A stretch of DNA of 64,000 nt, taken from the UHGV virus genome UHGV-0326727. One strand, given 5' to 3'. Origin of the DNA: a virus. The number at the start of each line of letters is the position of its first letter. Positions within the stretch are counted from its first letter, which is position 1. A model generated the notes under the pieces. The model searched no databases, was not told where the DNA came from, and worked only from the letters and a program-made list of their open reading frames with translations. Shown in pieces: positions 7,405 to 64,000 of the stretch. Made by a program: the position numbers and the translations under genes.

Positions 7405-7854
7405 ATGTGTTATACAGGCGACCCAGCCAATAACCCTCTTGATAGAGTAAGAATCCTCTGCACAGACACCAATAATGATGAAATTCTTATTGAGCAGTCT
7501 GTGCTAGAGTGGTTCTATCTAGAATCTGGAAAGGATGAAAAGAAAGCAGCCATCAAAGCTCTTAAATATTTACTCTTTCAAGTAGCCAAGATGGGAGATG
7601 AGAAGGTTGGTGGTGTTTATTTACGTAACTCTTCCAGATTCAAATCTCTGAAAGCTGTTTATGATGACCTTGTTAAAAGCTCTGTTTCAGGACTGCCCTA
7701 TGCAGGTGGTATTAATCAGTGCGATATTGACATGCGTCGTCAGAATCCTTGCTCTGTCAAGAAATACACAGAATATGGTGATGCTGCCAGATACGAAGGC
7801 AGAGATTACTGCAACCGTGTTAATGGCGTATTTATTATCGAGCGAGATGAATAA
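7405..7854 (+). CDS. Hypothetical head-tail joining protein (149 aa)
   Basis: Position downstream of capsid gene; no motif. Confidence 0.35.
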   Translation: MCYTGDPANNPLDRVRILCTDTNNDEILIEQSVLEWFYLESGKDEKKAAIKALKYLLFQVAKMGDEKVGGVYLRNSSRFKSLKAVYDDLVKSSVSGLPYAGGINQCDIDMRRQNPCSVKKYTEYGDAARYEGRDYCNRVNGVFIIERDE

Positions 7855-8336
7855 TGGTTAAAAGGGTTATTCACCCCGCTAGAGCAAAATTAGTCGGGGC
7901 TATGAAGAACTTGCAAACGGCTAATGCTCAAGTTGGGTATTTTCAAGAACAAGGTCAACATAGCTCTGGTTTTTCTTATCCTGCTTTAATGTATTTACAA
8001 GAAGTTATTGGGGTTCCTTCAGCTTCTGGTAAAGTATATCGTAGGTTGTTTGAAATCACTATGATGCTAAACAGACAGACCTTGTTAGAGCAGACTAAGA
8101 AGAATCTATATAAGCAACTTAGCAGTCTCAACACAGACCCTTCAAATACCTTAGAAGCATTTGCAAAGAATGCTCAGAAGGCAATTAAAAGAGGTTTTGG
8201 TAATTCTGCTATACTCCCTCCTAACGCACCTTCCACAGTCAAGAAAAAAGGCTTTAATGCACCTCTTGTTGAGACAGGTGACTTAAGAGATAACCTTGCT
8301 TATAAAATTTCTACTAAGAAGGGTATTAAAAAATGA
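7854..8336 (+). CDS. Hypothetical head-completion/adaptor protein (160 aa)
   Basis: Overlapping start/stop with neighbours in structural operon. Confidence 0.35.
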   Translation: MVKRVIHPARAKLVGAMKNLQTANAQVGYFQEQGQHSSGFSYPALMYLQEVIGVPSASGKVYRRLFEITMMLNRQTLLEQTKKNLYKQLSSLNTDPSNTLEAFAKNAQKAIKRGFGNSAILPPNAPSTVKKKGFNAPLVETGDLRDNLAYKISTKKGIKK

Positions 8337-8734
8337 GACTCTTAAACAGACACAGCTTTGTAGTAAAGCGTAAAGTCTCTGAAGACGGTTATTATAATGA
8401 TGATGGTGATTGGGTAGCTTCACAAGATATTGTAGAGGTTAACTGTAAAGGTAATATCCAGCCATATATCAAAGGTTCTGTAAAGAATGGTACACAGATT
8501 GCTTTACCGGAAGGTATTAGGCTTACCGATACAAGAATCCTGTATACCACATATAAACTTAGAACTTCAGATGATGTAGAGTGGAATGAGTCTGATATTG
8601 TTATGATTGATGGTCATGAGTATGAAGTATTTATGACTATGGATTGGTCACAGCAATTAGCCCATACGTCCCATTATGAATATATCATTATTAGAAGGGA
8701 TAAAATGAATGCAGTTAGAAACAGCAGAACTTGA
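8333..8734 (+). CDS. Hypothetical structural protein (133 aa)
   Basis: ATGA start/stop overlap with upstream gene. Confidence 0.35.
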   Translation: MRLLNRHSFVVKRKVSEDGYYNDDGDWVASQDIVEVNCKGNIQPYIKGSVKNGTQIALPEGIRLTDTRILYTTYKLRTSDDVEWNESDIVMIDGHEYEVFMTMDWSQQLAHTSHYEYIIIRRDKMNAVRNSRT

Positions 8735-9308
8735 AAAAGGTCTAGTTAGAGCCTTAGTGGATGTTATTGGTCACAGACTAGCTCGTGATAAAAATAATAG
8801 ACCAAATGTAATTAGAGCTTACCCTTCTGATAACTCAAATGACAAAGGTTTAAAACCTGACCAGCCATTTATTACCGTATATTGTCAAGATGCTGCAACA
8901 CCTTATGGTTGGGTTCTTGATAAGTTTGTTGAGGATGATGTAGTTTGCTACAGAATTGCTTTTCAGATTCCAGTATTAATTACGGTGAATGGTAAAGGTG
9001 CTCACAGTATTATGCTTGAGCTTAAACAACGATTAGAGATGAGTTCAGTCAGAGATTTAATTCTTGAAGAGACAGGAGCTACAGTTCTAGATACTGGAGC
9101 TATCCCAAATGACTATACTTATCTTAATACAGATTTCGAAAATTCTGCACCTCTTGTTGTAACTCTTGTAAAAAATTCAGTCCTGAAAGATGAACGTGGA
9201 AGTATTATTGAACGTGTCATTGTTGATGGTGAATTAGTTTACGAAGAAGGACAAGAGCCACCAGAATATACTATCCATCTAGATGTAGACTCCAAAGGGG
9301 TAAAATAA
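8709..9308 (+). CDS. Hypothetical tail-completion/neck protein (199 aa)
   Basis: Immediately precedes putative sheath gene. Confidence 0.35.
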   Translation: MQLETAELEKGLVRALVDVIGHRLARDKNNRPNVIRAYPSDNSNDKGLKPDQPFITVYCQDAATPYGWVLDKFVEDDVVCYRIAFQIPVLITVNGKGAHSIMLELKQRLEMSSVRDLILEETGATVLDTGAIPNDYTYLNTDFENSAPLVVTLVKNSVLKDERGSIIERVIVDGELVYEEGQEPPEYTIHLDVDSKGVK

Positions 9309-10661
9309 ATGTGGAATCCAATTGTTAATGTAGATATTACATTGAACACCGCAGGAACTACAAGAGAAGGTTTTGGGCTACCACTATTTTTAGCTTCAAC
9401 AGATAACTTTGAAGAAAGAGTCCGTGGTTACACTTCCTTAACTGAAGTTGCTGAAGATTTCGATGAAAACTCTGCTGCATATAAGGCTGCTAAACAACTT
9501 TGGAGTCAGACTCCTAAAGTAACCCAGCTTTATATTGGTAGACGTGCTATGCAGTACACTGTATCAATTCCTGACTCTGTTACTGAAAGTACCGATTATT
9601 CTTTAACTGTAGCTGTTAGAGGTGGAGTTTCTCAACCATTCCAGTACACTTCACAGTCAGAAGATACTGCTGAGAAGGTGTTACAGCAGCTTAAAACACA
9701 GATTGAAGCAGAACCTTCTGTAAAAGACCTTGTTACTGTCAATGTAACTGGTACTGGTGGTTCAGCAACAATGGTAATCACCAAAGCTGGTGACAACGAC
9801 TTCGTGAAGGTTACTACTACAGCACAAACAGTGTCAATTGCAAGCACAACTGCTGACACAGCATCGACTGCTCTGGCAGCTATTGAAGCTTATTCAACTG
9901 ACTGGTATTTCATTGCAGCAGAAGACAGAACTCAACAGTTTGTCTTAGCAATGGCTTCTGAGATTCAAGCTCGCAAGAAGATTTTCTTTACAGCTAACTC
10001 TGATGTAACAGCACTGCAAGGTACAGAATTAGCCAGTGCAAATGATGTTCCAGCACAACTTGCTAAGAATAAATACACTCGTACAGTTTGCTTGTGGCAT
10101 CACACAGCAGCAGAAGACTATCCAGAAATGGCATACATTGCTTATGGTGCTCCATATGATGCAGGTTCAATTGCTTGGGGTAACGCACAGTTAACTGGTG
10201 TAGCTGCTTCTCTACAACCATCTAATCATAGACCTCTGACAAGTATTCAGAAGTCAGCTTTAGATGCACGTCACTGTAACTTTATTGACCTTGATGGTGG
10301 TGTTCCAGTGGTTCGTAGAGGGATTACTTCTGGTGGGGAATGGATTGATATCATCCGTGGTGTTGACTGGTTAGAATCAGACCTGAAAACTTCTCTGAGA
10401 GACTTGCTAATTAATCAGAAGGGTGGTAAGATTACTTATGATGATACTGGTATTACCCGTATTCGTCAAGTCATTGAAACCTCTCTACAGAGAGCAGTCA
10501 ACAGAAACTTCCTGTCATCTTACACAGTTAATGTTCCTAAAGCCTCTCAAGTTGCTTTAGCAGACAAGAAAGCTCGTATCCTGAAAGATGTTACCTTCTC
10601 AGGTATCTTAGCAGGGGCTATCTTGGATGTTGACTTGAAAGGTACAGTGGCTTACGAATAA
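9309..10661 (+). CDS. Tail sheath protein (putative)
   Basis: 450 aa, followed by a 148-aa tube-like gene, a chaperone pair and a tape measure gene (contractile-tail order). Confidence 0.6.
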   Translation: MWNPIVNVDITLNTAGTTREGFGLPLFLASTDNFEERVRGYTSLTEVAEDFDENSAAYKAAKQLWSQTPKVTQLYIGRRAMQYTVSIPDSVTESTDYSLTVAVRGGVSQPFQYTSQSEDTAEKVLQQLKTQIEAEPSVKDLVTVNVTGTGGSATMVITKAGDNDFVKVTTTAQTVSIASTTADTASTALAAIEAYSTDWYFIAAEDRTQQFVLAMASEIQARKKIFFTANSDVTALQGTELASANDVPAQLAKNKYTRTVCLWHHTAAEDYPEMAYIAYGAPYDAGSIAWGNAQLTGVAASLQPSNHRPLTSIQKSALDARHCNFIDLDGGVPVVRRGITSGGEWIDIIRGVDWLESDLKTSLRDLLINQKGGKITYDDTGITRIRQVIETSLQRAVNRNFLSSYTVNVPKASQVALADKKARILKDVTFSGILAGAILDVDLKGTVAYE

Positions 10662-23514: not shown

Positions 23515-23712
23515 ATGCCTACAATCCTAGCAATTCTTCTAAAAAATCTAGGTAGCTTCTTCTGGAAACTCATTTTATCCCTTCTAAGTGAATACATGAT
23601 TGAGAAAGTGTTCTTTAGGCTTGCAAGATACCTTGCAAGTAAGACAGACACACCTATTGATGATGAGTTCGTAGATAACTTAGAAAAAGCTTTTAAGGGG
23701 GAGAATAAATGA
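23515..23712 (+). CDS. Small hydrophobic protein (65 aa)
   Basis: N-terminal hydrophobic segment ILAILLKNLGSFFWKLILSLL. Confidence 0.4.
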   Translation: MPTILAILLKNLGSFFWKLILSLLSEYMIEKVFFRLARYLASKTDTPIDDEFVDNLEKAFKGENK

Positions 23713-24080
23713 AGTGGCTAGAGGAAGCTTTTAAAAATAATATTGGTGCAATTGTAGTTGGTATTTTTAGTGTTATTGGGATGTATACCACCATGCAAGT
23801 CTCGGAAGGTAAACAAGAAGTGTCTATCACAACAAAATTACAGCAGTTAGATAATTATTCCAAAAGTAATTATTCAGCTATTCGTGATTTACAGTCTGAT
23901 ATGAGGCTGCTTCAGCTAGGGATGGAGAACCAGAAAGTCCAGTTAGAGAATGTTAAGGGTGAGAACGCAAAACTTACTAAGACTCTTGATAAATTCTCTG
24001 ATAGTGTGAACAATCTGGCTCAATCAGTATCAGCCCTCCAAGCTATTACTGAAAAGAACACAAAGAATACTGAAAAGTAA
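23709..24080 (+). CDS. Membrane-anchored coiled-coil protein (123 aa)
   Basis: N-terminal TM helix IGAIVVGIFSVIGMY followed by Gln/Leu/Lys-rich heptad region. Confidence 0.4.
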   Translation: MKWLEEAFKNNIGAIVVGIFSVIGMYTTMQVSEGKQEVSITTKLQQLDNYSKSNYSAIRDLQSDMRLLQLGMENQKVQLENVKGENAKLTKTLDKFSDSVNNLAQSVSALQAITEKNTKNTEK

Positions 24081-54535: not shown

Positions 54536-56317
54536 ATGACTAAATCACTTTATGCAGTACCAGCAGGTTTAAACGCAGATGCTTACAAATCTGGTCACAT
54601 TTACCAGTATCCTAGTGCAACAGAATACTTGATGTTCAACCTGACACCACGTAGTGATAAATGGTTTAACAGTCCTTTAGCAATTGACGGTGTAGTGGCT
54701 TTTGGTATTCAACGTTTTATTAAAGACTACTTAATAGACCACTGGAACGCCACCTTCTTCGAACGTGACAAAGAAGAAGCAATTGACGAAATCTTAGAAG
54801 TCATGAACGGTGTTCTGGGTAAAGATGCTATTGGTCGTGAACATTGGGAAGCACTTCACGACTTAGGTTATCTACCAGTTGAAGTATACGCTGTAGAAGA
54901 AGGCACAGTTGTTCCTATGCGTGTACCAATGATTGTCTTCCAGAACACTGTTTCAGGTTTCCATTGGGTAGCGGGGTATCTGGAAGATGCTTTCTCTGCT
55001 GAGATTTGGAAGGCTTGTACCATTGCAACTATTGCATTGCACTACAAACGTATCTGTAAGAAGTGGTCTGACCTTACTTGTGATAACGACTTACATTTGC
55101 CTTATCAGTGTCATGACTTTGCTATGCGTGGTATGTCCGGCTTTACTGATGACGCATTTAACGCTGTAGGACACTTAACCAGCTTTAAAGGAACTGATAG
55201 CTTCCCTGCTGTATATACAGCTAAACGCATCTATGGACAGTCCTACCCAATCTCTGATATTGGTAGTTCTGTACCAGCCACTGAACACTCTGTAATGTGT
55301 GCAAACATTGCTTGGGAAGGTGGTAATGAGTTGATTGAAGAAGAAAGACGCTTTAAAGGTGAGTTACAAACTTTCCGTCGTTTCTTAACAGAAACTTACC
55401 CAACTGGTATTGCAAGTGTTGTTTCAGACACTTATAATTTCTGGAGAACTGTATCAGAAATCTTACCAGCACTTCGTAAAGAGATTATGGAACGTGACGG
55501 CAAACTGGTAATTCGTCCTGACTCTGGTGACCCTGTACATATTGTCACAGGTTATAAAGCAATCCACTTAGAGTGTGCTAAAAAGGCTTATTACGAACAC
55601 CTAAGCAAGCTGGAAGCCAGTGACACAATGCTGAATGCTGTTCTGAACATGAAGCTTGAAAACATCAACTATGGTATTGCTGGATGGCTATTGTCAGAAG
55701 GCTACGAAATGGTTGTTGACAGAGAAGACTTTGAAGTTGCTGATACAGTGCTGTTGAAAAATGCTTATATGGTTGGCTCTGCAAACGTTGTAACACGTCC
55801 TGTAGCAGAGATTGATGGGGCTATTAAGACCCTGTATAACATCTTTGGAGGGACTATCAACTCTAAAGGTTTTAAGGTACTGGATGAGCACATTGGCCTT
55901 ATTTATGGTGACTCTATCACGTTGGAACGTGCAAACGAAATCCTGAAACGTTTGTATGAAATGGGTTTTGCAAGCTCTAACGTAGTGTTTGGTGTAGGTT
56001 CTTATACTTACCAGTACATGACTCGTGACACCTTTGCATTTGCTGTCAAAGCAACTCTTGCAAGTATTGGTGGTAAAGAGATTATGCTTGCAAAAGACCC
56101 TAAAACAGATAGCGGTGTTAAGAAGTCTGCTTTTGGTGGTGTAGCACCCATGTGGGATGGTGATAAGCTGAAAGCTGTAGATGGCTATGGATTCCAGAGC
56201 TTTGCAGATGTGCTTGAACATCCAGCTTGTGCTTTACGTTTAGTCTTTAGTGACTCTGAGCAGTTCGGTTACACAACTCTTGGTGATATTCGAAATAATA
56301 TTGACAAGCAACTTTAA
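54536..56317 (+). CDS. nadV: Nicotinamide phosphoribosyltransferase-like protein (NAMPT/NadV family)
   Basis: 593 aa; N-terminal NAMPT-type motif DAYKSGHIYQYP and overall type II PRTase length. Confidence 0.75.
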   Translation: MTKSLYAVPAGLNADAYKSGHIYQYPSATEYLMFNLTPRSDKWFNSPLAIDGVVAFGIQRFIKDYLIDHWNATFFERDKEEAIDEILEVMNGVLGKDAIGREHWEALHDLGYLPVEVYAVEEGTVVPMRVPMIVFQNTVSGFHWVAGYLEDAFSAEIWKACTIATIALHYKRICKKWSDLTCDNDLHLPYQCHDFAMRGMSGFTDDAFNAVGHLTSFKGTDSFPAVYTAKRIYGQSYPISDIGSSVPATEHSVMCANIAWEGGNELIEEERRFKGELQTFRRFLTETYPTGIASVVSDTYNFWRTVSEILPALRKEIMERDGKLVIRPDSGDPVHIVTGYKAIHLECAKKAYYEHLSKLEASDTMLNAVLNMKLENINYGIAGWLLSEGYEMVVDREDFEVADTVLLKNAYMVGSANVVTRPVAEIDGAIKTLYNIFGGTINSKGFKVLDEHIGLIYGDSITLERANEILKRLYEMGFASSNVVFGVGSYTYQYMTRDTFAFAVKATLASIGGKEIMLAKDPKTDSGVKKSAFGGVAPMWDGDKLKAVDGYGFQSFADVLEHPACALRLVFSDSEQFGYTTLGDIRNNIDKQL

Positions 56318-56328
56318 AAGTATATGAT
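56301..56328 (+). promoter_or_regulatory. Sigma70-like promoter TTGACA-N16-TATGAT overlapping 3' end of NAMPT-like gene
   Basis: TTGACA 56301-56306, TATGAT 56323-56328. Confidence 0.4.
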
Positions 56329-56331
56329 AAG

Positions 56332-56354
56332 AGGCTCCTACGGGAGCCTTTTTA
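56332..56354 (+). terminator. Rho-independent terminator
   Basis: AGGCTCC-TACG-GGAGCCT followed by TTTTT. Confidence 0.65.
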
Positions 56355-56370
56355 ATTTCTGGAGAAGATT

Positions 56371-56706
56371 ATGAAAATCAAAGAAATGAACATCAACATT
56401 GTCTTAGAAGAACGTTGGGAGAACATCAAGAGGTCTGAAAATGGTCATAAGTTCCTCAACAAAATCTTAGTGGCAGCTAAAGAAGAACTGACTGGCAAGG
56501 TTGCAGCAGCAATCACAATAAAGGTGTGTGTAAAAGGTCTTCCAGACAATCACCAATTTGCACTTGACGAGTTTAAAGAAAGCTTCTACAATCCAAACAA
56601 ACAGATGCTTGAAAGTAACTTTGCAGTATCTACAAGTATCGTTCATGACAGAAGCTTTATCCTTTACAAGAATATGAGAGGTGAGTCATGCAAGCATATT
56701 GGATAG
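56371..56706 (+). CDS. Hypothetical protein (111 aa)
   Basis: ORF. Confidence 0.4.
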   Translation: MKIKEMNINIVLEERWENIKRSENGHKFLNKILVAAKEELTGKVAAAITIKVCVKGLPDNHQFALDEFKESFYNPNKQMLESNFAVSTSIVHDRSFILYKNMRGESCKHIG

Positions 56707-56864
56707 AAATTTTACTGTCACTTGGTAGTGTAGCAGTGTTCGTTTACCTTCTTTGCAAGTACTATGCAGAGCACAAAAAATGTGACTTCTGTGACGGAGA
56801 AGGTTATACAAGAGCAGGTTGTTGCCCTATGTGTGGCGGTTCTGGTAAAATGTTTAATAAGTAA
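56688..56864 (+). CDS. Small membrane-anchored protein with DnaJ-type zinc-finger repeats (58 aa), not in ORF track
   Basis: Hand-translated MQAYWIEILLSLGSVAVFVYLLCKYYAEHKKCDFCDGEGYTRAGCCPMCGGSGKMFNK: N-terminal TM helix then CxxCxGxG ... CxxCxGxG. Confidence 0.35.
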   Translation: MQAYWIEILLSLGSVAVFVYLLCKYYAEHKKCDFCDGEGYTRAGCCPMCGGSGKMFNK

Positions 56865-56892
56865 TTTAACAGTAAACTAAGAGGAAAGTATT

Positions 56893-59259
56893 ATGCGCAT
56901 GGTAAATGACCACGCAGAAGTGATTAAGAGTTCAACTTCTTTAGAGACGTCTCAAGCACAGATTACAATGACACCTGAAATGTTCAGCCTTTTGAGTTCT
57001 GGTGTATATACCTTTAAAGAAAGGGCAGTTATTCGTGAACTGTCATGTAACGCAGTAGATGCTCAGAAAGAAGCTGGAAAAGAGAACATCCCGTTCCATG
57101 TGCATTTACCTACTCGTTTTGAGCCTTACTTTGAAGTTCGTGATTTTGGAACTGGATTGACTCATGATAAAGTTATGAGTTTGTATCTAAATTACGGGGC
57201 TTCTACGAAGAATGACTCTAATGACTACATTGGTGCAATGGGTATCGGCTCAAAATCCCCATTTGCAATTGCTCAGTCATTCACAGTATCTAGCTATGTT
57301 GATGGTGTTGTCAATAAGTACTCTGTTTACCTTGAGAATGGTATCCCTCAAGTAACTAAGCTGACCACTAACCCAACAAAAGAACCTAATGGTTTAGCTG
57401 TACGTGTAGCAGTTGCTGACCACCGTATTTCAAAGTTCTTTGAAGAAGCTGGTCACGTATACTCATACTTTGCTGTAAAACCAGAAAGTAATATCGAGTA
57501 CGACGATATATTAGCAGACATGAATGTCATTGCCCGTGAAGAAGGTGTTTATGATGCCATGATTCATAAGCAAAGCTGGCGCTCTAGTGGTAACAGGACA
57601 GAGTTTAATGTGGTGATGGGTAACATCGCCTACCCTGTTAACATGGAAGCACTACTTGGTGATGATTTCTTCAAAGTCTTGCCAGAGTTTTTCCGTAGGA
57701 GCGTAGACCTTGTAAACATCTATATGCCTATTGGTTCAGTTGCTATTGCAGCTTCTCGTGAAGCATTGCAGATGAATGATACAACAAAAAATGTTATCAT
57801 TGAGGCTACTAAAAAGATAACTGAAGCAATTACAAAGGATGTTATCAAGAAAGTTAATAGCCAACCTACACTCATGGATGCTGCACAGGCTTATGCTGAG
57901 TTACGTTTAAACTCACGAGAGATGTTTAATGCTGTGTGTCCAAAACTAGAGTGGGGAGGCGTTAAGCTTGATTCTTTGGAAGAAGAATTGCTAAACATTC
58001 GTCGTGGAATTATCTACGCAGAAGACGGCTCAGTTATCTATGAACGTGACGGCAAAGGTAATATTAAGGTTGATAGGAACGGGAACAACATCCCTAAAGT
58101 AGATTATCTTTATAATCCAGTTGCTTATGTTAAGTTTAACTCTTTAGAGAGTAAGATTCGTGCAACAGCGCTTTCCTACACTCAAGAGGCAAGTATGTTC
58201 AATATCTTTGGCGCAATGCGTAAAAGTCAAATTGAGCAGTTTTTGTTTGTTATAAATGACCGTCGCAATAAAAATGGTACTGAGAAGACTGTAGGACGCA
58301 ATCAGATTCTGCGTGGTGCATGTCGAGACTATGCCAGTGAATCCAGTCTGTTTCACAGATACAATGGTATTGTCTTTGTATTCTCGACTGAAAAAGAGCT
58401 AGATGATTTAATCAATCTTCACAAACTTGATAAAAGCTTGTTAAAGATTGTGAAGATGTCTGATAAGGAACATCATTATCAGCGTAAAGAAGCTGTAAGA
58501 GGTGTTGTAAAACTTTGGAAAGCTGTTCCAGCAGAAGGTGTAGCTTCATACAAAGAGGTGTCAGAAGACTTAGATACGATTGAAGAGCCTCAGCTTTATA
58601 TTAAGGCAGTAGGCGACACAGTTGATGGCGAATGTTTTTGCTCATCTCCAGAAGATGTAGCTAAGTCAGTTGCCAATGTCATTGGAAAGACAGTATATGT
58701 TTTCCGAAAAGCAAATTGGAAAAAGATACCAGAAGACTGGATTGAAGTAGATGAGAAGCTCTTGAACGACAGCTTAACTGATGTTCACTGGATTAATCAT
58801 AATAGGTATATGACACGTATCTATATGAATGGTGTCCTTGACCTTACAAGCAGTTGGATTATTGCCAGAAACTTTACGTTCAATAACAGGAAGATTTCTC
58901 GTGGCTATTGCTATTCACGAGACACAAACAAAACTATCTTCTTAGAAGGTAATGAAGATGCTGTTGAGGCAATGTTTGGTAAAATCCAATACGTTGCTGC
59001 ACCGTTTGCATACACTTACACTGTTAGTCGGTTGCAAACTTTGAAAGAATGCCTTGACAATGACACAAAGTTGTACAAGAAAATTAAGAAAGCTGGTGAC
59101 CGTATGGTTATTAAGGTGACAAACTATCTTTTAAAAAGAAAACAAGAAAACTTCTTGCTTTCTCATTTAGATTGGAATAAAGTGTCACCCATCGAAGTAA
59201 GTAAGTTCTTAGGCTTTGATGTGAAGTGTGTTCCAGAAGGGACTACAATTTACGATTAA
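56893..59259 (+). CDS. rIIA: rIIA-like protein with N-terminal GHKL (histidine-kinase/HSP90-like) ATPase fold
   Basis: 788 aa; Bergerat-fold motifs N-box ELSCNAVDA, G1 RDFGTGL, G2 GAMGIGSKS; size and pairing with downstream gene resemble T4 rIIA/rIIB. Confidence 0.55.
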   Translation: MRMVNDHAEVIKSSTSLETSQAQITMTPEMFSLLSSGVYTFKERAVIRELSCNAVDAQKEAGKENIPFHVHLPTRFEPYFEVRDFGTGLTHDKVMSLYLNYGASTKNDSNDYIGAMGIGSKSPFAIAQSFTVSSYVDGVVNKYSVYLENGIPQVTKLTTNPTKEPNGLAVRVAVADHRISKFFEEAGHVYSYFAVKPESNIEYDDILADMNVIAREEGVYDAMIHKQSWRSSGNRTEFNVVMGNIAYPVNMEALLGDDFFKVLPEFFRRSVDLVNIYMPIGSVAIAASREALQMNDTTKNVIIEATKKITEAITKDVIKKVNSQPTLMDAAQAYAELRLNSREMFNAVCPKLEWGGVKLDSLEEELLNIRRGIIYAEDGSVIYERDGKGNIKVDRNGNNIPKVDYLYNPVAYVKFNSLESKIRATALSYTQEASMFNIFGAMRKSQIEQFLFVINDRRNKNGTEKTVGRNQILRGACRDYASESSLFHRYNGIVFVFSTEKELDDLINLHKLDKSLLKIVKMSDKEHHYQRKEAVRGVVKLWKAVPAEGVASYKEVSEDLDTIEEPQLYIKAVGDTVDGECFCSSPEDVAKSVANVIGKTVYVFRKANWKKIPEDWIEVDEKLLNDSLTDVHWINHNRYMTRIYMNGVLDLTSSWIIARNFTFNNRKISRGYCYSRDTNKTIFLEGNEDAVEAMFGKIQYVAAPFAYTYTVSRLQTLKECLDNDTKLYKKIKKAGDRMVIKVTNYLLKRKQENFLLSHLDWNKVSPIEVSKFLGFDVKCVPEGTTIYD

Positions 59260-59264
59260 AGTGT

Positions 59265-59294
59265 TTGACAAGGGGCTTTGAAGCCCCTTAGAAT
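59265..59294 (+). promoter_or_regulatory. Sigma70-like promoter TTGACA-N18-TAGAAT with a 6-bp hairpin inside the spacer
   Basis: TTGACA 59265-59270; hairpin GGGGCT-TTGA-AGCCCC 59272-59287; TAGAAT 59289-59294. Confidence 0.45.
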
Positions 59295-59338
59295 ATCCTT
59301 ACAAAATGATTTATTAACTGACAAGAGAGAGTAATAAG

Positions 59339-60448
59339 ATGACTACTAAAACTAAAGCACAGATTGACGCAGAAATTTACAAACTGGTTAAAGAAGGTAA
59401 GCTGACTAAAACAGCTATTGCACAGAAGTTCAATACTTCAACCCGTTCAGTTGGTCGTGCTGTAGAGCGTCATGAAGCAACCTTAAAAGGTAAGAAAAAG
59501 GTAGCTTCTAAACCAGCTAAGAAGACTTTGAAGCAAGTTGCTAAGTCAGTTAAAAAGAAAGCTGGCAAACCAGTTGAAAAGGTTGTTAAAGAGGCTGTAC
59601 AGAAAGCTCCAGTAAATAAACTACACGAAGCTATGCAGAATGGTGACCGAATTGAGTATATGATTACTGGCGATTCTGTTATCATGACTTTCGGTGCAGA
59701 TTCTGAAATCGTTGAGTCTACCCATCCGAACTACAAAGAAATCGTAATGGCTGTTGTAGGTGGTGAGTACAAGAAAGCTTTCGAACTGATGAACATTCGT
59801 AAGTCTATCGAAAACTTCACTCAGGGTGCTATCACAATCAAAGGTGATAAGTTATTCTACGGTGCTGTTGAGATGCGTTCTACTCTGGTTGACCGTATCC
59901 TTCACATGATGAAGACTGGTGATAAAGGTTTTGAACGACTTGTAATGTTCTTCGAAAAACTGATGGAAAACCCATCTAAAGACTCTGTAGAACAACTTTG
60001 GGGATTCGTATCTCATCTTGATGTTGAAATTGATGAAGAAGGTTACATCATTGGTTGGAAGAAAGTCTCTACTCGTGAAGGCAAGCTGGTTGACTCTCAC
60101 ACCTACAAAGTACCTAATGATTTGGGTAACATTGTAGAGATGCCACGTTGGATGGTTGATAACAACCGTAACGTAACTTGCTCTCAAGGTCTTCATGTTG
60201 GTGCTTGGGATTATGTTCGTTGCTTCTCAGGTGATACCATCCTGAAGGTTCGTGTCCATCCACGAGATGTTGTATCTGTTCCAACTGATTACAACGATAT
60301 GAAGATGCGTTCCTCTCGTTATGAAGTTGCAGCAATCGTTGATAATCAACGTAAAGTGCTGAAAGCATGGGATGGTAAGACTGAAGCTTTGCATGTCATC
60401 GTTGGCACTGCTGGTGAACTCATCTCTCAACGTAAACGTGAAATCTAA
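59339..60448 (+). CDS. rIIB: rIIB-like protein (putative) with N-terminal HTH
   Basis: 369 aa directly after rIIA-like gene; N-terminal HTH-like LTKTAIAQKFNTSTRSVGRAVERH followed by Lys/Ala-rich linker. Confidence 0.4.
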   Translation: MTTKTKAQIDAEIYKLVKEGKLTKTAIAQKFNTSTRSVGRAVERHEATLKGKKKVASKPAKKTLKQVAKSVKKKAGKPVEKVVKEAVQKAPVNKLHEAMQNGDRIEYMITGDSVIMTFGADSEIVESTHPNYKEIVMAVVGGEYKKAFELMNIRKSIENFTQGAITIKGDKLFYGAVEMRSTLVDRILHMMKTGDKGFERLVMFFEKLMENPSKDSVEQLWGFVSHLDVEIDEEGYIIGWKKVSTREGKLVDSHTYKVPNDLGNIVEMPRWMVDNNRNVTCSQGLHVGAWDYVRCFSGDTILKVRVHPRDVVSVPTDYNDMKMRSSRYEVAAIVDNQRKVLKAWDGKTEALHVIVGTAGELISQRKREI

Positions 60449-60463
60449 TAAGTAATTTCTTAA

Positions 60464-60487
60464 AAGGCTGCTTCGGCGGCCTTTTTT
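60464..60487 (+). terminator. Rho-independent terminator (UUCG tetraloop)
   Basis: AAGGCTGC-TTCG-GCGGCCTT (one G-U) followed by TTTTTT. Confidence 0.65.
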
Positions 60488-60488
60488 A

Positions 60489-60517
60489 TTTGTATTTTGT
60501 GCAGAGTGCTGTATAAT
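60489..60517 (+). promoter_or_regulatory. Sigma70-like promoter with consensus -10 TATAAT
   Basis: TTGTAT/TTTGTA -35-like, TATAAT 60512-60517 preceded by TG. Confidence 0.45.
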
Positions 60518-60548
60518 TGTGGTCACGATAAACTAAACAGGAGAACCA

Positions 60549-61097
60549 ATGAAGAAGTTGATTCTAGGTTTGTGCTTAATGTTTACAGCACACTTATCTT
60601 ATGCAGTTGACTGCCCAGAGCTATCAATTAGCCAAAAAGTAAACATGTTAAAAGCTTACCAGTATGGTGAGAATAATATGGGGAAGGGCTGGGGTATTAC
60701 TCTAGCAGCTATAGCCTTACAAGAGTCAGAGTTAGGTCTGAAGGTAGAGAATAAAAAGACCCATGACTATGGTATTTTCCAGAATCACTTGAAGACTGTT
60801 GTAAAGCGTAACAAAATTAGTCCTAATGTGGCTAAAAAGAAACTCTTAAAAGATTTTGACTATGCAGCAAAAGAGACGCATAAAGAGCTTGAGTTTTGGA
60901 CGAAGGTACATGGTCAACCAAAGTCAAAGAAGACTTTACAAAAAGTTTTAGCATCATATAATGCTGGGTATTCGTACAAAATTCCTAAAGCTAAGAAATA
61001 CTCTCAAGATGTCTACAACAATATGAAAGTTATTGCTCAATGTGAATTTGCAACAAACATTTCTAAGGTAAATCATGAAAAAATTAAGAAAGTCTGA
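60549..61097 (+). CDS. Lytic transglycosylase-like endolysin with N-terminal signal peptide
   Basis: 182 aa; signal-like N-terminus MKKLILGLCLMFTAHLSYA; SLT-type catalytic region AIALQESELG and YNAG motif. Confidence 0.6.
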   Translation: MKKLILGLCLMFTAHLSYAVDCPELSISQKVNMLKAYQYGENNMGKGWGITLAAIALQESELGLKVENKKTHDYGIFQNHLKTVVKRNKISPNVAKKKLLKDFDYAAKETHKELEFWTKVHGQPKSKKTLQKVLASYNAGYSYKIPKAKKYSQDVYNNMKVIAQCEFATNISKVNHEKIKKV

Positions 61098-61770
61098 TGA
61101 AGTACTGTGTCATGCTTATGACTTACATCCTCATGAGTTAGGTCTTGATTCCTGTGTATGGACCCCAGAACAGTGCAGAGATTTTGAAGATACTGCAAGA
61201 GAGGTTGTATGCTCACTTGAAGAGTTCCACACATCAGAATCAATTGTGAACGTTGTGGACAAAGAGACTGGACAATCTATAGGTGTAAGACGTGACAGTT
61301 TAGTCATAGTCAATAAAGACCTTGTAGAAAAAGGTAACCTTATCTTAGCAGACATTGATGGTGTTCTTACAAATTTTAATCACGAAGATTTCTCAACGGA
61401 ATTGATTGATGGGTCATTTTCACAGTACACTAATTTACTTGACTCTGTAAGTGCAAAGCCAACGTATGTTTTCAATATTATTGATGCAATCTCTAATCAT
61501 GCTGCCATTGGACTCTTGACAGCGAGGGGTGAATCTCAGAGAATACCTACTGAGATGTTTTTAAGGCATTACATAGAGCATGATTACATGCTTTTTATGC
61601 GTGGTTTTGGAACTAATTCTATAAGTGCAGAAAGTTTGAAAGTGAGGATGATTCAGTCTTGCATTCTGCCTTACTTTAATATAGTATGTTTTATAGAAGA
61701 TACAGAGAAGAATGTTCAGAAGGTAAACAGAATCCTTCCACACATTAAAACCATGTTAGTTAAACATTGA
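61075..61770 (+). CDS. HAD-superfamily phosphatase-like protein
   Basis: 231 aa; HAD motif I ILADIDGVLT (after ~85-aa N-terminal extension). Confidence 0.5.
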   Translation: MKKLRKSDEVLCHAYDLHPHELGLDSCVWTPEQCRDFEDTAREVVCSLEEFHTSESIVNVVDKETGQSIGVRRDSLVIVNKDLVEKGNLILADIDGVLTNFNHEDFSTELIDGSFSQYTNLLDSVSAKPTYVFNIIDAISNHAAIGLLTARGESQRIPTEMFLRHYIEHDYMLFMRGFGTNSISAESLKVRMIQSCILPYFNIVCFIEDTEKNVQKVNRILPHIKTMLVKH

Positions 61771-62246
61771 GAGAAAAACTTATGAACAATATCATTACGG
61801 TAGCACTGGACGATACGACAAACAAATCTGTAGTAGTTCGTAAAATGATTCAAGGTAACTTTGAAGGTAAAATTTTTCGTGCTGTTAATGTAAAAGCTGA
61901 TGGCAGTATTCGTGAATATCGTGCATTGTTGAATGTTAAAAAGCACGTAAAAGGTGCTGGTTCAACGACTGCACACAAAGAAAACCTGATGACTATTTAT
62001 GATATGGGTAAGGCTTCAGAGTTAGGTGCTGAAGGTATCGTTAAAGAAGGTGCTCCGTATCGCTCTTTCAATCTGGAAACTACTCTTATGCTTTCCTTTA
62101 CAAGTGGTTCTAAAACAATCACTTACCTCTTTACTGATGCTGCAACGGTATCTGCTATCAAGGATAGCACTGTCAAAGCTGGCGTAGTTGCTGCTGCAAA
62201 AGCTTCTTCGATGGCTGCAAATATCCTTGCTAAAGTCCTCGGTTAA
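61767..62246 (+). CDS. Hypothetical protein (159 aa)
   Basis: ATGA overlap; followed by terminator. Confidence 0.4.
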   Translation: MREKLMNNIITVALDDTTNKSVVVRKMIQGNFEGKIFRAVNVKADGSIREYRALLNVKKHVKGAGSTTAHKENLMTIYDMGKASELGAEGIVKEGAPYRSFNLETTLMLSFTSGSKTITYLFTDAATVSAIKDSTVKAGVVAAAKASSMAANILAKVLG

Positions 62247-62257
62247 GGTTAAGATAC

Positions 62258-62279
62258 AGGCTCCTTCGGGAGCCTTTTT
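62258..62279 (+). terminator. Rho-independent terminator (UUCG tetraloop)
   Basis: AGGCTCC-TTCG-GGAGCCT followed by TTTTT. Confidence 0.7.
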
Positions 62280-62298
62280 CATTTCAGGAGATTGTTAA

Positions 62299-62646
62299 AT
62301 GACATTTAAAGAGTTCTGTCAAGCCACTTTCATAATTGTTTTCTTAGTTGGAGCAGGTGTCTGGGGAGGATACTCTTACAGAGACTATCAAGTTGCTGAA
62401 GCTGAGCTAAATAATGAGAAACTAATAAGTGTTGCTAAAGATGCTTATCAGGAAGGTTTAGCCACACTCAGCACCAATTACAAAAATGATTTGAAAGATG
62501 TGCTTGCTAAGAATAAGCATACAAAAGAGGTACTAACATATGAAAAAACTAAGCCAGAGTTTTATAATGTTTGTGTTACTGATAATTATGTCAGGGTGTT
62601 CAACGAACAAAGTGAACAGTACATTCAAAAACTCCCAAGTAAGTGA
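62299..62646 (+). CDS. Inner-membrane spanin (Rz-like, putative)
   Basis: 115 aa; N-terminal TM helix FIIVFLVGAGVWGGY then charged coiled-coil-like region; overlapped by a lipoprotein ORF in another frame. Confidence 0.55.
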   Translation: MTFKEFCQATFIIVFLVGAGVWGGYSYRDYQVAEAELNNEKLISVAKDAYQEGLATLSTNYKNDLKDVLAKNKHTKEVLTYEKTKPEFYNVCVTDNYVRVFNEQSEQYIQKLPSK

Positions 62647-62809
62647 GAGTGACAAGTACACTCAAGAAGAGACAAGATTCATTGTCAAAGGTAATACTGG
62701 CAGTGATGTGGCAGCAGCCCTTGAGTTTTATCGTGATGGTTTTTACCAGTGCACAATAAAAGCTAATAACCTTATTGATATGATTTTATTAGGAAACAAA
62801 CAGCAATGA
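62540..62809 (+). CDS. Outer-membrane spanin lipoprotein (Rz1-like, putative), overlapping the i-spanin gene
   Basis: 89 aa; signal plus lipobox FVLLIIMSGC; starts inside 62299..62646 in a different frame (overlapped architecture). Confidence 0.55.
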   Translation: MKKLSQSFIMFVLLIIMSGCSTNKVNSTFKNSQVSESDKYTQEETRFIVKGNTGSDVAAALEFYRDGFYQCTIKANNLIDMILLGNKQQ

Positions 62810-63075
62810 CAGAGAATGAAGACACTTTCTATGTAGAAGGGTACTTACTGCTACCACGACCAAAAGAAACTTATATGCGGTTTGATTTCTCACCAACCAT
62901 TATGGATAATGTGATGTGTCATATCTTTATGCAAGGTGTCACAGCACAGCTTAAGCATGTTGGTAAAGAGTGCAAAATAAAGGTTGACACTCATCCAGAA
63001 ATCAAAGAGAATCACTACGCATGGTTCTTACCAGACTCTAAAGAAATCTTAGCAGTTCTAAAAACGAGGAAATGA
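62806..63075 (+). CDS. Hypothetical protein (89 aa)
   Basis: ATGA overlap with upstream gene. Confidence 0.35.
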   Translation: MTENEDTFYVEGYLLLPRPKETYMRFDFSPTIMDNVMCHIFMQGVTAQLKHVGKECKIKVDTHPEIKENHYAWFLPDSKEILAVLKTRK

Positions 63076-63386
63076 TTATGCAATTCCAGCCAACAAATCG
63101 TGGATTTTCTTATGCAGAATTTAAAGATGCTAAAGGAGAGATTTGTACTTTACAAGAAAGTTCATCATATGAACCATGTATCTGGTTAGGTGCTAAAGAG
63201 GTCTCTGTTCAGTACCTAGATGGTGGCTGGAAAACACTTGATATCCCAGCATTAGTAGGCAAAGATTTTGTAGGTAACCAAAGAATGAAACTCAATCAAG
63301 AACAGGTAAAAGAACTGTTGCCGTACCTCCAATACTTTGCTGAAAATGGTGAATTACCAACAGAGGAACTTACAAATGCAGATTAA
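63072..63386 (+). CDS. Hypothetical protein (104 aa)
   Basis: ATGA overlap. Confidence 0.35.
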   Translation: MIMQFQPTNRGFSYAEFKDAKGEICTLQESSSYEPCIWLGAKEVSVQYLDGGWKTLDIPALVGKDFVGNQRMKLNQEQVKELLPYLQYFAENGELPTEELTNAD

Positions 63387-63702
63387 CGGAAGAGATTTTG
63401 TAGCCGTTTACTACGAGAAAGATAAAGAAGTTGGCGTAGCACAAGTATCTTATGGTAATGGTAAGTGGTTGTATGGGACAATCGCAGTAGTCGGAACAAG
63501 AAGTGATACAAAAACTTTTAAAGACTGTGTTGACCTTCTTGAGGAATCCATCCATAATCATTGGTGTCTGATATGGATGACTGACAACGAAGTGATAGAA
63601 CGCTTCAAAAAGATTGGTATCAACATTGATAGCATTGAGCATGTTGACTTGTATGAGCTAACTGAGAAGGTAAACTATGAAAGTAATACTAGCCAGAGAT
63701 AA
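63337..63702 (+). CDS. Hypothetical protein (121 aa)
   Basis: ORF overlapping neighbours. Confidence 0.35.
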   Translation: MLKMVNYQQRNLQMQINGRDFVAVYYEKDKEVGVAQVSYGNGKWLYGTIAVVGTRSDTKTFKDCVDLLEESIHNHWCLIWMTDNEVIERFKKIGINIDSIEHVDLYELTEKVNYESNTSQR

Positions 63703-63910
63703 AAAGACCCGCAAGATTGTACGTTCAGCAGTATTCATAGGGAGAGATGAAGTCGTCCCGTTTGCAGGGGAAGATGTGCTAACTTATAAGAAGGGTTTAA
63801 AACGTAAATTCAGTGACCGTTTACGCGGCTTCATCTCTGAACCATTAGAAGATTTCAAAAGTCGCTGTGGCAAAGGCATCATCATTCAAGAGGCAATTAT
63901 TCATGGCTGA
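63677..63910 (+). CDS. Hypothetical protein (77 aa)
   Basis: ORF. Confidence 0.3.
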   Translation: MKVILARDKKTRKIVRSAVFIGRDEVVPFAGEDVLTYKKGLKRKFSDRLRGFISEPLEDFKSRCGKGIIIQEAIIHG

Positions 63911-64000
63911 TTTCTGCAAAGATTGTGCTATCGAAATGTTTGGACGTGATACAGGTGACTTAAAAGGTCTTATCACTGAAGATGACTTTAAAGCTGGCTA
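63903..64000 (+). CDS. Hypothetical protein, 5' fragment (runs off window end)
   Basis: ATG 63903 opens frame MADFCKDCAIEMFGRDTGDLKG... to window end. Confidence 0.3.
   Translation, partial: MADFCKDCAIEMFGRDTGDLKGLITEDDFKAG

Follow-up and report, generated by a model that had tools for sequence, protein, structure and literature searches.

A stretch of 64,000 nucleotides (nt) of the virus genome UHGV-0326727, called here the window, carries between positions 60549 and 62809 a gene for a protein resembling lytic transglycosylases of the SLT type and, two genes further on, a pair of spanins. An initial annotation read this block as a split lysis cassette in which the SLT-like protein is a secreted endolysin. 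The computational analysis described here leads to a different picture. Judged by sequence, the SLT-like protein is the ortholog of Vs.1 of phage T4; it is probably an accessory periplasmic wall enzyme, with lysis being the work of the spanins and of a soluble endolysin of the GH24 family. The open reading frames (ORFs), SLT motifs, leader, lipobox, spanins and two intervening genes that had been described are all found where they were placed. The protein at the centre of the question and its leader are the following (aa, amino acids).

60549-61097, + strand: Vs.1-family secreted lytic transglycosylase-like protein, 182 aa, assigned from phrog_600, the predicted fold and the motifs
60549-60605, + strand: predicted Sec-type signal peptide, aa 1-19, with n-region MKK, h-region LILGLCLMFTA, c-region HLSYA and cut at A19/V20 (rule-based)

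Which phage is this? A megablast search with 60400-63100 returned 258 phage records, nearly all of Felixounavirus and the best at about 97-98% identity; 256 of them span 80% or more of the query. This genus comprises the Felix O1-like myoviruses, whose hosts in database records are Escherichia, Salmonella, Shigella and Citrobacter. The window belongs to Felixounavirus. It is about 97% identical to Escherichia phage EC6 (NC_027369), and it is collinear with about 17.0 to 80.3 kb of that genome.

A Vs.1-family protein with a predicted lytic transglycosylase fold

The SLT-like protein matches phrog_600, a family filed under 'unknown function', over aa 1-170 (E = 1e-57), and T4 Vs.1 matches the same family (E = 2e-68). 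Compared directly by BLASTP, the window protein and T4 Vs.1 (NP_049725) share 32% identity with the leader included (E = 3e-16). The homolog is flanked by regB and vs both in T4 and in pSs-1, a T4-like phage, and this position identifies it as gene vs.1. The likeness to T4 Vs.1 runs through the full-length family match (181 versus 182 aa), a cleavable-looking leader and the ES, G-x-F-Q and Y-N-x-G motifs. The two differ in that the window gene follows rIIB instead of lying between regB and vs, and in that the T4 protein is without the Cys22/Cys165 pair discussed below. On these alignments and shared motifs the SLT-like protein is read as the ortholog of T4 Vs.1.

The family is large. Relatives covering aa 1-155, leader included, were found by tblastn in 2,129 phage records, among them T4-like phages, Ackermannviridae, KVP40-like Vibrio phages and the T4-likes of Aeromonas and Acinetobacter; relatives of the phrog_600 type belong mostly to large virulent phages of Gram-negative hosts. 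An exhaustive profile search gathered 1,301 clusters at 50% identity, mostly of 160-195 aa. A weak SLT similarity of T4 Vs.1 was already remarked upon in 2006 (PMC1524935), and the literature on Vs.1 function yielded, beside that remark, omics timing tables and no functional study. One homolog is labelled 'Campylobacter coli transglycosylase SLT domain-containing protein'. It is encoded on a 214-kb contig (6001-6582 of the compared stretch), two genes from a PhiKZ-type chimallin gene (8019-9953), and a bacterial origin was ruled out on account of that gene. The contig looks like a jumbo (nucleus-forming) phage, in which case the Vs.1 family would reach the chimalliviruses.

Does the protein look like a working enzyme? 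The sequence carries QESELG at aa 58-63 (nt 60720-60737), GIFQ at aa 75-78 and YNAG at aa 137-140 (nt 60957-60968), so the SLT-like domain seen initially through QESELG and YNAG is indeed present, with its catalytic motifs intact. The putative catalytic Glu59 (nt 60723-60725) is followed by Ser60, giving the E-S motif, while G75-I-F-Q78 and S136-Y-N-A-G140 supply the G-L-M-Q-like and A-Y-N-x-G-like motifs. Glu59, Tyr137, Gly140 and Tyr151 are invariant across the aligned family (170/170), and position 60 is Ser or Thr in all 170 members. T4 Vs.1 scores 25.1 bits against the SLT family of Pfam (PF01464), above the gathering cut-off of 21.3.

The AlphaFold2 (AF2) model has a predicted local distance difference test score (pLDDT) above 90 over most of aa ~30-160; the leader is disordered. 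Foldseek comparison of the model with the PDB retrieved goose-type lysozymes at probability 1.0, Cj0843, MltF and MltE at 0.98-0.99, and also Slt and phiKZ gp144, the overall range being 0.95-1.0 at a template-modelling score (TM) of about 0.5; models of small phage SLT proteins came closer (E = 8e-9, TM 0.7). When the family profile was searched against PDB sequences the best match was EtgA (E = 2.5e-4), followed by goose lysozyme. Searching the PDB with single sequences (the SLT-like protein, the two spanins, the neighbouring polynucleotide kinase-like protein) brought up nothing meaningful. The model describes a single domain of predicted lytic transglycosylase/goose-lysozyme fold.

The gene is under very strong purifying selection. 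Against EC6, AYO145A and MG065668, the three records used for all such comparisons, it shows 16-26 synonymous and 0-1 non-synonymous differences, a ratio of non-synonymous to synonymous rates (dN/dS) of at most 0.01. A Shine-Dalgarno site, GGAG at 60540-60543, precedes it, and such sites precede both spanin genes as well. Conservation of the block across the 258 records, low dN/dS and the Shine-Dalgarno sites together argue that these are real genes and not chance ORFs.

The N-terminal leader

How would the enzyme reach the wall? The protein begins with MKKLILGLCLMFTAHLSYA, followed by VDC, with the predicted cut after A19. Rule-based analysis finds an 11-residue hydrophobic core, rich in Leu, Ile, Phe and Met and with one Gly, and then an S-Y-A/V site for signal peptidase I. 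This design recurs in the family: 91% of the phrog_600-family members with a complete N-terminus carry an N-terminal hydrophobic leader (151/166), with Lys or Arg ahead of it in 143 of these 151 and a hydrophobic run mostly of 9-14 residues, which is the length of a signal peptide and not of a transmembrane or signal-anchor-release (SAR) segment. These features support the N-terminal segment as an export signal. A lipoprotein reading, suggested by L-G-L-C9, was discarded for want of fit to a lipobox.

The initial annotation had left the choice between a signal peptide and a SAR anchor open; the former stands and the latter does not. A SAR domain would keep the enzyme tethered and inactive in the inner membrane until depolarisation, as in P1 Lyz or the R protein of phage 21. 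The uncharged stretch does span 17 residues (aa 4-20, between K3 and D21), long enough to make a signal anchor possible, with the 19-residue hydropathy window just getting to 1.64. Set against this are a core that is short (mostly 9-14 residues across the family) and Leu/Ile/Phe/Met-rich rather than Gly/Ala-rich, the canonical S-Y-A/V site directly after it, and a probable Cys22-Cys165 disulfide, which suits a free, folded periplasmic domain. SAR endolysins differ, too, in that here the leader is signal-peptide-like and the phage has another, canonical endolysin. A SAR domain is therefore very improbable.

The two cysteines of that candidate pair, Cys22 (60612-60614) and Cys165 (61041-61043), tend to come and go together. 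Of 166 members, 81 have both an N-terminal Cys and one at the C165 position, 65 have neither, 20 have the N-terminal one only and none the C-terminal one only (Fisher p = 2e-28, a value that takes no account of phylogeny and to that extent weakens the case). The pattern is as expected of a disulfide and hence of a periplasmic protein, and a Cys22-Cys165 bond is regarded as probable from this co-occurrence.

The endolysin lies outside the window

If the SLT-like protein is exported and looks catalytically competent, why should it not be the endolysin? The first reason is that the genus has another one. EC6 gp016 (NC_027369 7180-7644) is annotated as endolysin and matches Phage_lysozyme/GH24 profiles (PF00959, E = 5e-41; phrog_7, E = 1e-58); it is without an N-terminal hydrophobic segment and so is of the soluble, cytoplasmic type. 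No trace of it was found by tblastn of the window, because it is encoded in the part of the genome that the window does not cover. For the felixounaviruses C600M2 and CL1, both among the megablast matches to 60400-63100, the expressed lysin was lytic and was described as an N-acetylmuramidase with a cd00737 domain (PMC9156722). With this domain, the lysin assayed in those phages belongs with gp016 and is distinct from the SLT-like protein. The Felixounavirus endolysin is a soluble GH24 muramidase encoded outside the window, and with it falls the identification of the SLT-like protein as the phage endolysin, a misassignment that could not be detected from the window, since the true endolysin lies beyond it.

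The second reason comes from T4, which has a complete e/t/spanin system and in which, as in the phage studied here, the Vs.1-type gene coexists with a separate canonical endolysin. T4 e mutants do not lyse and their virions remain trapped in the dead cell, and the T4 lysozyme genes are counted as e and 5 only (PMC7650644). Time-resolved omics of T4 detected Vs.1 and placed it in the early RNA and middle protein class, long before lysis (PMC9697503 supplement). That e mutants stay unlysed despite carrying vs.1, with Vs.1 made early to mid infection, is indirect evidence for an accessory enzyme and against an endolysin under pinholin control.

Endolysins with a signal peptide do exist, Lys44 of Oenococcus phage fOg44 being a parallel. 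Could the SLT-like protein be a true Sec-exported, holin-independent endolysin, restrained in the periplasm and activated by pinholin-like depolarisation? Like P1 Lyz, phage 21 R and fOg44 Lys44, it would bring a muralytic domain to the wall without a hole-forming holin. Its domain is predicted to be exported and of muralytic type, its catalytic Glu is intact and selection on it is very strong; the genus has no validated holin; and some records, as well as UniRef, label the protein 'lysin' or 'putative lysin'. Against these points stand the soluble, canonical GH24 endolysin, whose lytic activity has been measured, the failure of the ortholog Vs.1 to rescue lysis in T4 e mutants, the early to mid appearance of T4 Vs.1, the position of the gene in a unit of its own with a terminator-like hairpin between its gene block and the spanins, and a vicinity in which no pinholin-like gene was found. 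This alternative is unlikely. Nor does it follow that a secreted muralytic protein implies pinholin-type or holin-independent release, as had been proposed, because the GH24 endolysin exists and because vs.1 is present in T4 e mutants that do not lyse. A virion-associated lysin was rejected too, by inference, because virions are assembled in the cytoplasm and a Sec leader takes the protein out of it.

The overlapped spanin pair and its partners in lysis

Of the genes in the block, the two spanin genes alone have a place in the established lysis pathway.

62299-62646, + strand: i-spanin, 115 aa, matching phrog_1152 'Rz-like spanin' (E = 9e-42), with an N-terminal transmembrane domain (TMD) and the Shine-Dalgarno site AGGAG
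62540-62809, + strand: o-spanin, 89 aa, with lipobox IMSGC at nt 62585-62599 (Cys20), matching phrog_4180 (E = 2e-50, unnamed)

The i-spanin has a single predicted hydrophobic segment at aa 6-24 / 9-27 (TMD ~aa 9-27, nt 62323-62379) and none elsewhere, and one periplasmic Cys, C92, within the motif EKTKP-FYNVC-D-YVRVFNE. Its AF2 model is mostly helical, at a mean pLDDT of 50.6 that is too low to rely on. The o-spanin gene begins at 62540, within the i-spanin gene but in the +1 frame, and its end lies past the i-spanin stop, which is the overlapped architecture. Its lipobox, I-M-S-G-C20 followed by S-T, has Ser at +2 and no Asp retention residue; it fits the PROSITE PS51257-type pattern and not the strict L-x-x-C form. 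One further Cys, C71, lies within the motif EFYRD-FYQC. The match to phrog_456 'Rz-like spanin' is weak (E = 2e-4), and the gene is annotated as o-spanin in many database records.

Three divergent phages, Erwinia phage phiEa104, Hafnia phage SarahDanielle and the podovirus NJ01, supplied pairs for comparison. The overlapped layout, the TMD, the lipobox with C-S-T and both Cys motifs, that of the i-spanin in the form EKTKP-FYNVC-D-YVRMFNE, are kept in all four pairs, C92 and C71 being conserved in 4/4. The dN/dS of the i-spanin is 0.03-0.05 and that of the o-spanin 0.1-0.35. Kongari et al. 2018 (PMC6139136) list EC6, Felix01, FO1a, Moogle, wV8 and UAB_Phi87 in their JH2 i-/o-spanin families, place the Felix01, FO1a and UAB_phi87 pairs among the overlapped ones and give homotypic intermolecular disulfides as the general rule; a single periplasmic Cys per subunit fits that rule. 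The window pair shares these traits (overlapped genes, TMD, lipobox, one Cys per subunit) and at the nucleotide level is about 97-98% identical to the EC6 pair. By their sequence features, then, 62299 and 62540 encode a real overlapped i-/o-spanin pair, already catalogued in the JH2 families, and the initial assignment of these two genes holds.

The JH2/Felix O1 spanins are counted as functional equivalents of lambda Rz/Rz1 and T4 PseT.3/PseT.2. Their architecture is overlapped here, embedded in lambda and separated in T4, and the window o-spanin has no proline whereas lambda Rz1 is proline-rich. BLASTP and phmmer comparisons of the window spanins and the polynucleotide kinase-like protein with T4 PseT.3, PseT.2, PseT.1 and PseT found nothing significant, leaving adjacency of polynucleotide kinase and spanin genes as the only likeness to T4 (pseT.3-pseT.2-pseT.1-pseT, 134002-135781). 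One annotation detail concerns the o-spanin start: RefSeq EC6 gp121 and AYO145A gp007 begin at GTG 62612 and are given as a 65-aa 'hypothetical protein'. That start cuts away the signal peptide and lipobox; ATG 62540 is plausible instead, being preceded by a Shine-Dalgarno site. Under-annotation of overlapped o-spanins is a problem described by Kongari et al. 2018 (PMC6139136).

Where, then, is the holin? A hydropathy census and Pfam scans found no holin-like gene beside the SLT-like/spanin block, and no pinholin-like gene near the SLT-like gene, so the initial remark that no classical holin is adjacent was right. A candidate lies about 36.5 kb away, at the end of the tail-fibre operon.

23709-24080, + strand: holin candidate, 123 aa, ~93% identical to the Moogle 'putative holin' CPT_Moogle54; unvalidated

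Many Felixounavirus records label its product 'holin' or 'putative holin'. In the product a single N-terminal TMD is followed by a long helical C-terminal domain, a topology that is also i-spanin-like. Six small membrane ORFs of the window, this one included, were scanned against Pfam and PHROG, and none matched a holin family. The small membrane ORFs noted at the outset at 23515, 48247 and 50802 do exist; the census found a handful in all besides the candidate, with 50701 and 56688 among them, and 23515-23712 is a conserved 65-aa ORF (phrog_402) directly upstream of the candidate, its stop overlapping the candidate's start; neither of these two ORFs matches a known family. Dispersed lysis genes are a published trait of Felix O1-like phages, as in Moogle (PMC4319497) and Meda (PMC6486253), and the Meda announcement annotated spanins and endolysin and identified no holin (PMC6486253).

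Transcription signals and unit boundaries

60462-60495, + strand: strong terminator-like hairpin after rIIB (hairpin at 60462-60485), 10-bp stem with 5 G-C pairs and a T-run, of Rho-independent type; AYO145A has an annotated terminator at the corresponding site
60490-60517, + strand: sigma-70-like promoter candidate read from the sequence, with a weak -35 TTGTAT (60490-60495) and a perfect -10 TATAAT (60512-60517)
62258-62284, + strand: terminator-like hairpin AGGCTCC-TTCG-GGAGCCT (62258-62275) with a T-run, at the junction between the 154-aa hypothetical gene and the i-spanin gene; annotated as a terminator in AYO145A

The promoter candidate scored below the scan threshold, and AYO145A has an annotated promoter there with 3 mismatches. 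The SLT-like gene is probably transcribed from this host-type promoter of its own. With one hairpin between rIIB and the SLT-like gene and another between the hypothetical gene and the spanins, the block is not one lysis unit: of the split lysis cassette first described, the dispersal of the lysis genes holds and the unity of the block does not. There is good reason to see here three parts of an early region, namely rIIA-rIIB, the Vs.1-like enzyme with a phosphatase and a hypothetical protein, and the spanins, in place of a lysis cassette built around a secreted endolysin.

One of the three comparison records deserves a word. MG065668 ('UNVERIFIED: Campylobacter phage A126') is an Ounavirinae contig with about 94% identity to window 54549-64000, and its Campylobacter host label looks doubtful. 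Its SLT-like protein is 100% identical to that of the window, and it carries an insertion of about 1.7 kb (7746-9454 of the compared stretch) exactly between the terminator of the hypothetical gene and the i-spanin gene (window 62250-62293).

Possible role of the Vs.1-like enzyme

What might an exported wall enzyme do beside a canonical endolysin? The SLT-like product would be exported by Sec and its 19-residue leader cut after A19. The mature enzyme would fold in the periplasm as a single domain, probably stabilised by the C22-C165 disulfide, and would cleave glycan strands without a holin at a level that the cell tolerates. Cells tolerate their own periplasmic transglycosylases. Its most likely task, as a guess, would be to condition or remodel the sacculus in the latent period. 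Lysis itself would proceed from the holin (candidate 23709-24080) to the GH24 endolysin encoded outside the window and then to the spanins at 62299-62809. The i-spanin would be held in the inner membrane by its N-terminal TMD and the o-spanin, a lipoprotein, sent to the outer membrane, the two forming a periplasm-spanning complex, probably with homotypic disulfides through the one conserved Cys of each. Intact murein would restrain this complex; once the murein is destroyed, the complex would disrupt the outer membrane.

A role wholly apart from lysis has also to be weighed, by analogy with enzymes of like architecture. EtgA, of the type III secretion system of enteropathogenic Escherichia coli (PDB 8urn), consists of a signal peptide and a single small periplasmic SLT/goose-lysozyme-like domain, the same architecture as here; IpgF, IagB, VirB1 and P19 are further specialised lytic transglycosylases of secretion systems. 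A dedicated function of this sort could possibly be a local opening of the murein for an envelope process, superinfection exclusion, or cell enlargement in prolonged infection. It would agree with EtgA as the best sequence-profile match in the PDB, with the early to mid production of the T4 ortholog, and with the constant presence of a separate endolysin in the phages examined (T4, EC6). The relationship to EtgA is weak, however, at the E-value of 2.5e-4 given above. The window gene is phage-borne and lies between rIIB and the phosphatase, not within a secretion or conjugation apparatus, and shows no genetic linkage to any apparatus; searches of plasmids found no relatives at the BLAST level, hence no direct link to the transglycosylases of conjugation systems. 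No envelope-spanning phage structure that would need such an enzyme is known. Assignment to a specific dedicated role is quite unlikely, and it overlaps with the accessory wall enzyme favoured here, from which it differs solely by naming that role.

Several points weigh against the accessory-enzyme reading. The window protein scores 18.8 bits against PF01464, under the cut-off that T4 Vs.1 passes, and the PDB fold matches of its model have modest E-values (best E = 8e-3). Export, cleavage and activity are predictions for both the SLT-like protein and T4 Vs.1, the leader call being rule-based. The T4 spanins are also of the early class (PMC9697503 supplement), so the early expression of Vs.1 is not by itself decisive against a role in lysis. 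And as the holin of the genus is unvalidated, a part for the SLT-like enzyme in the timing of lysis stays conceivable wherever the analogy with T4 fails to carry over.

Neighbouring genes

56893-59259, + strand: rIIA (phrog_612, E = 1e-189)
59339-60448, + strand: rIIB (phrog_609, E = 7e-88), directly upstream of the SLT-like gene block
61075-61770, + strand: polynucleotide kinase (PNK)-like protein, 231 aa (phrog_3970, E = 8e-134), overlapping the end of the SLT-like gene by 23 nt
61782-62246, + strand: conserved hypothetical protein, 154 aa from ATG 61782 or 159 aa from the upstream TTG 61767 (phrog_2267)

The presence of rIIA and rIIB immediately 5' is the ground for taking the region as an early/host-interaction region. 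The two genes said to separate the SLT-like gene from the spanins are there, one PNK-like and the other of phrog_2267. Other PNK profiles match the first only at aa 84-219, the HAD-type phosphatase part with its DIDGV motif; a P-loop kinase domain is absent, and searches of Pfam, PDB and NCBIfam found no match. The start of the second at 61782 is the position of the annotated EC6 gp119 start. The distant Hafnia phage SarahDanielle keeps the order rIIB - transglycosylase - PNK-like - ... - spanins - ... - macro-domain phosphatase. The T4 order is regB-vs.1-vs-tk.4 (A1pp/macro phosphatase), and that of Ounavirinae (RegB or rIIB)-Vs.1-like-PNK-...-spanins-...-macro-domain phosphatase. A linkage of SLT-like homologs to rII outside Ounavirinae was rejected on the example of the Ackermannviridae phage Se-B, in which rIIA/rIIB do not adjoin the homolog.

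Two further observations concern rIIA and its surroundings. In the window rIIA is a single intact ORF of 788 aa, and the annotation of RefSeq EC6 divides it into two overlapping coding sequences, gp114 'RIIA lysis inhibitor' and gp115 'hypothetical protein', a split that suggests a frameshift or sequencing error in the EC6 record. Just 5' of rIIA, a 58-aa ORF (56688-56864) has an N-terminal transmembrane segment and a C-terminal zinc-ribbon-like CxxCxGxG motif, with weak DnaJ_CXXCXGXG and Lar matches.

Implications

Earlier work on Felix O1-like phages documents the spanin pair, the scatter of the lysis genes and the missing holin, and the supposed endolysin belongs to the long-noticed Vs.1 family; as an account of this one phage the result is ordinary and largely known already. 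It does carry a practical warning. Since some records label the Vs.1-type protein 'lysin', endolysin mining could choose the wrong gene.

The interest that is left is a general one and concerns the function of the Vs.1-family enzymes. These are highly conserved, strongly constrained, predicted exported wall-cleaving enzymes found in many well-studied virulent phages, spread across T4-like, Felix O1-like, Vi1-like and KVP40-like phages and one apparent jumbo phage contig. It is a tentative idea, and one that may well prove wrong, that the family is an unrecognised additional player in the infection cycle, a Sec-exported, holin-independent murein-cleaving enzyme that is made early to mid infection and pre-conditions or remodels the sacculus. 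If so, it might permit cell enlargement and larger bursts or quicken the collapse of the wall once the endolysin arrives, and it might act on kinds of wall with which the GH24 endolysin copes badly. The answer could add a component to the textbook scheme of phage infection and lysis.

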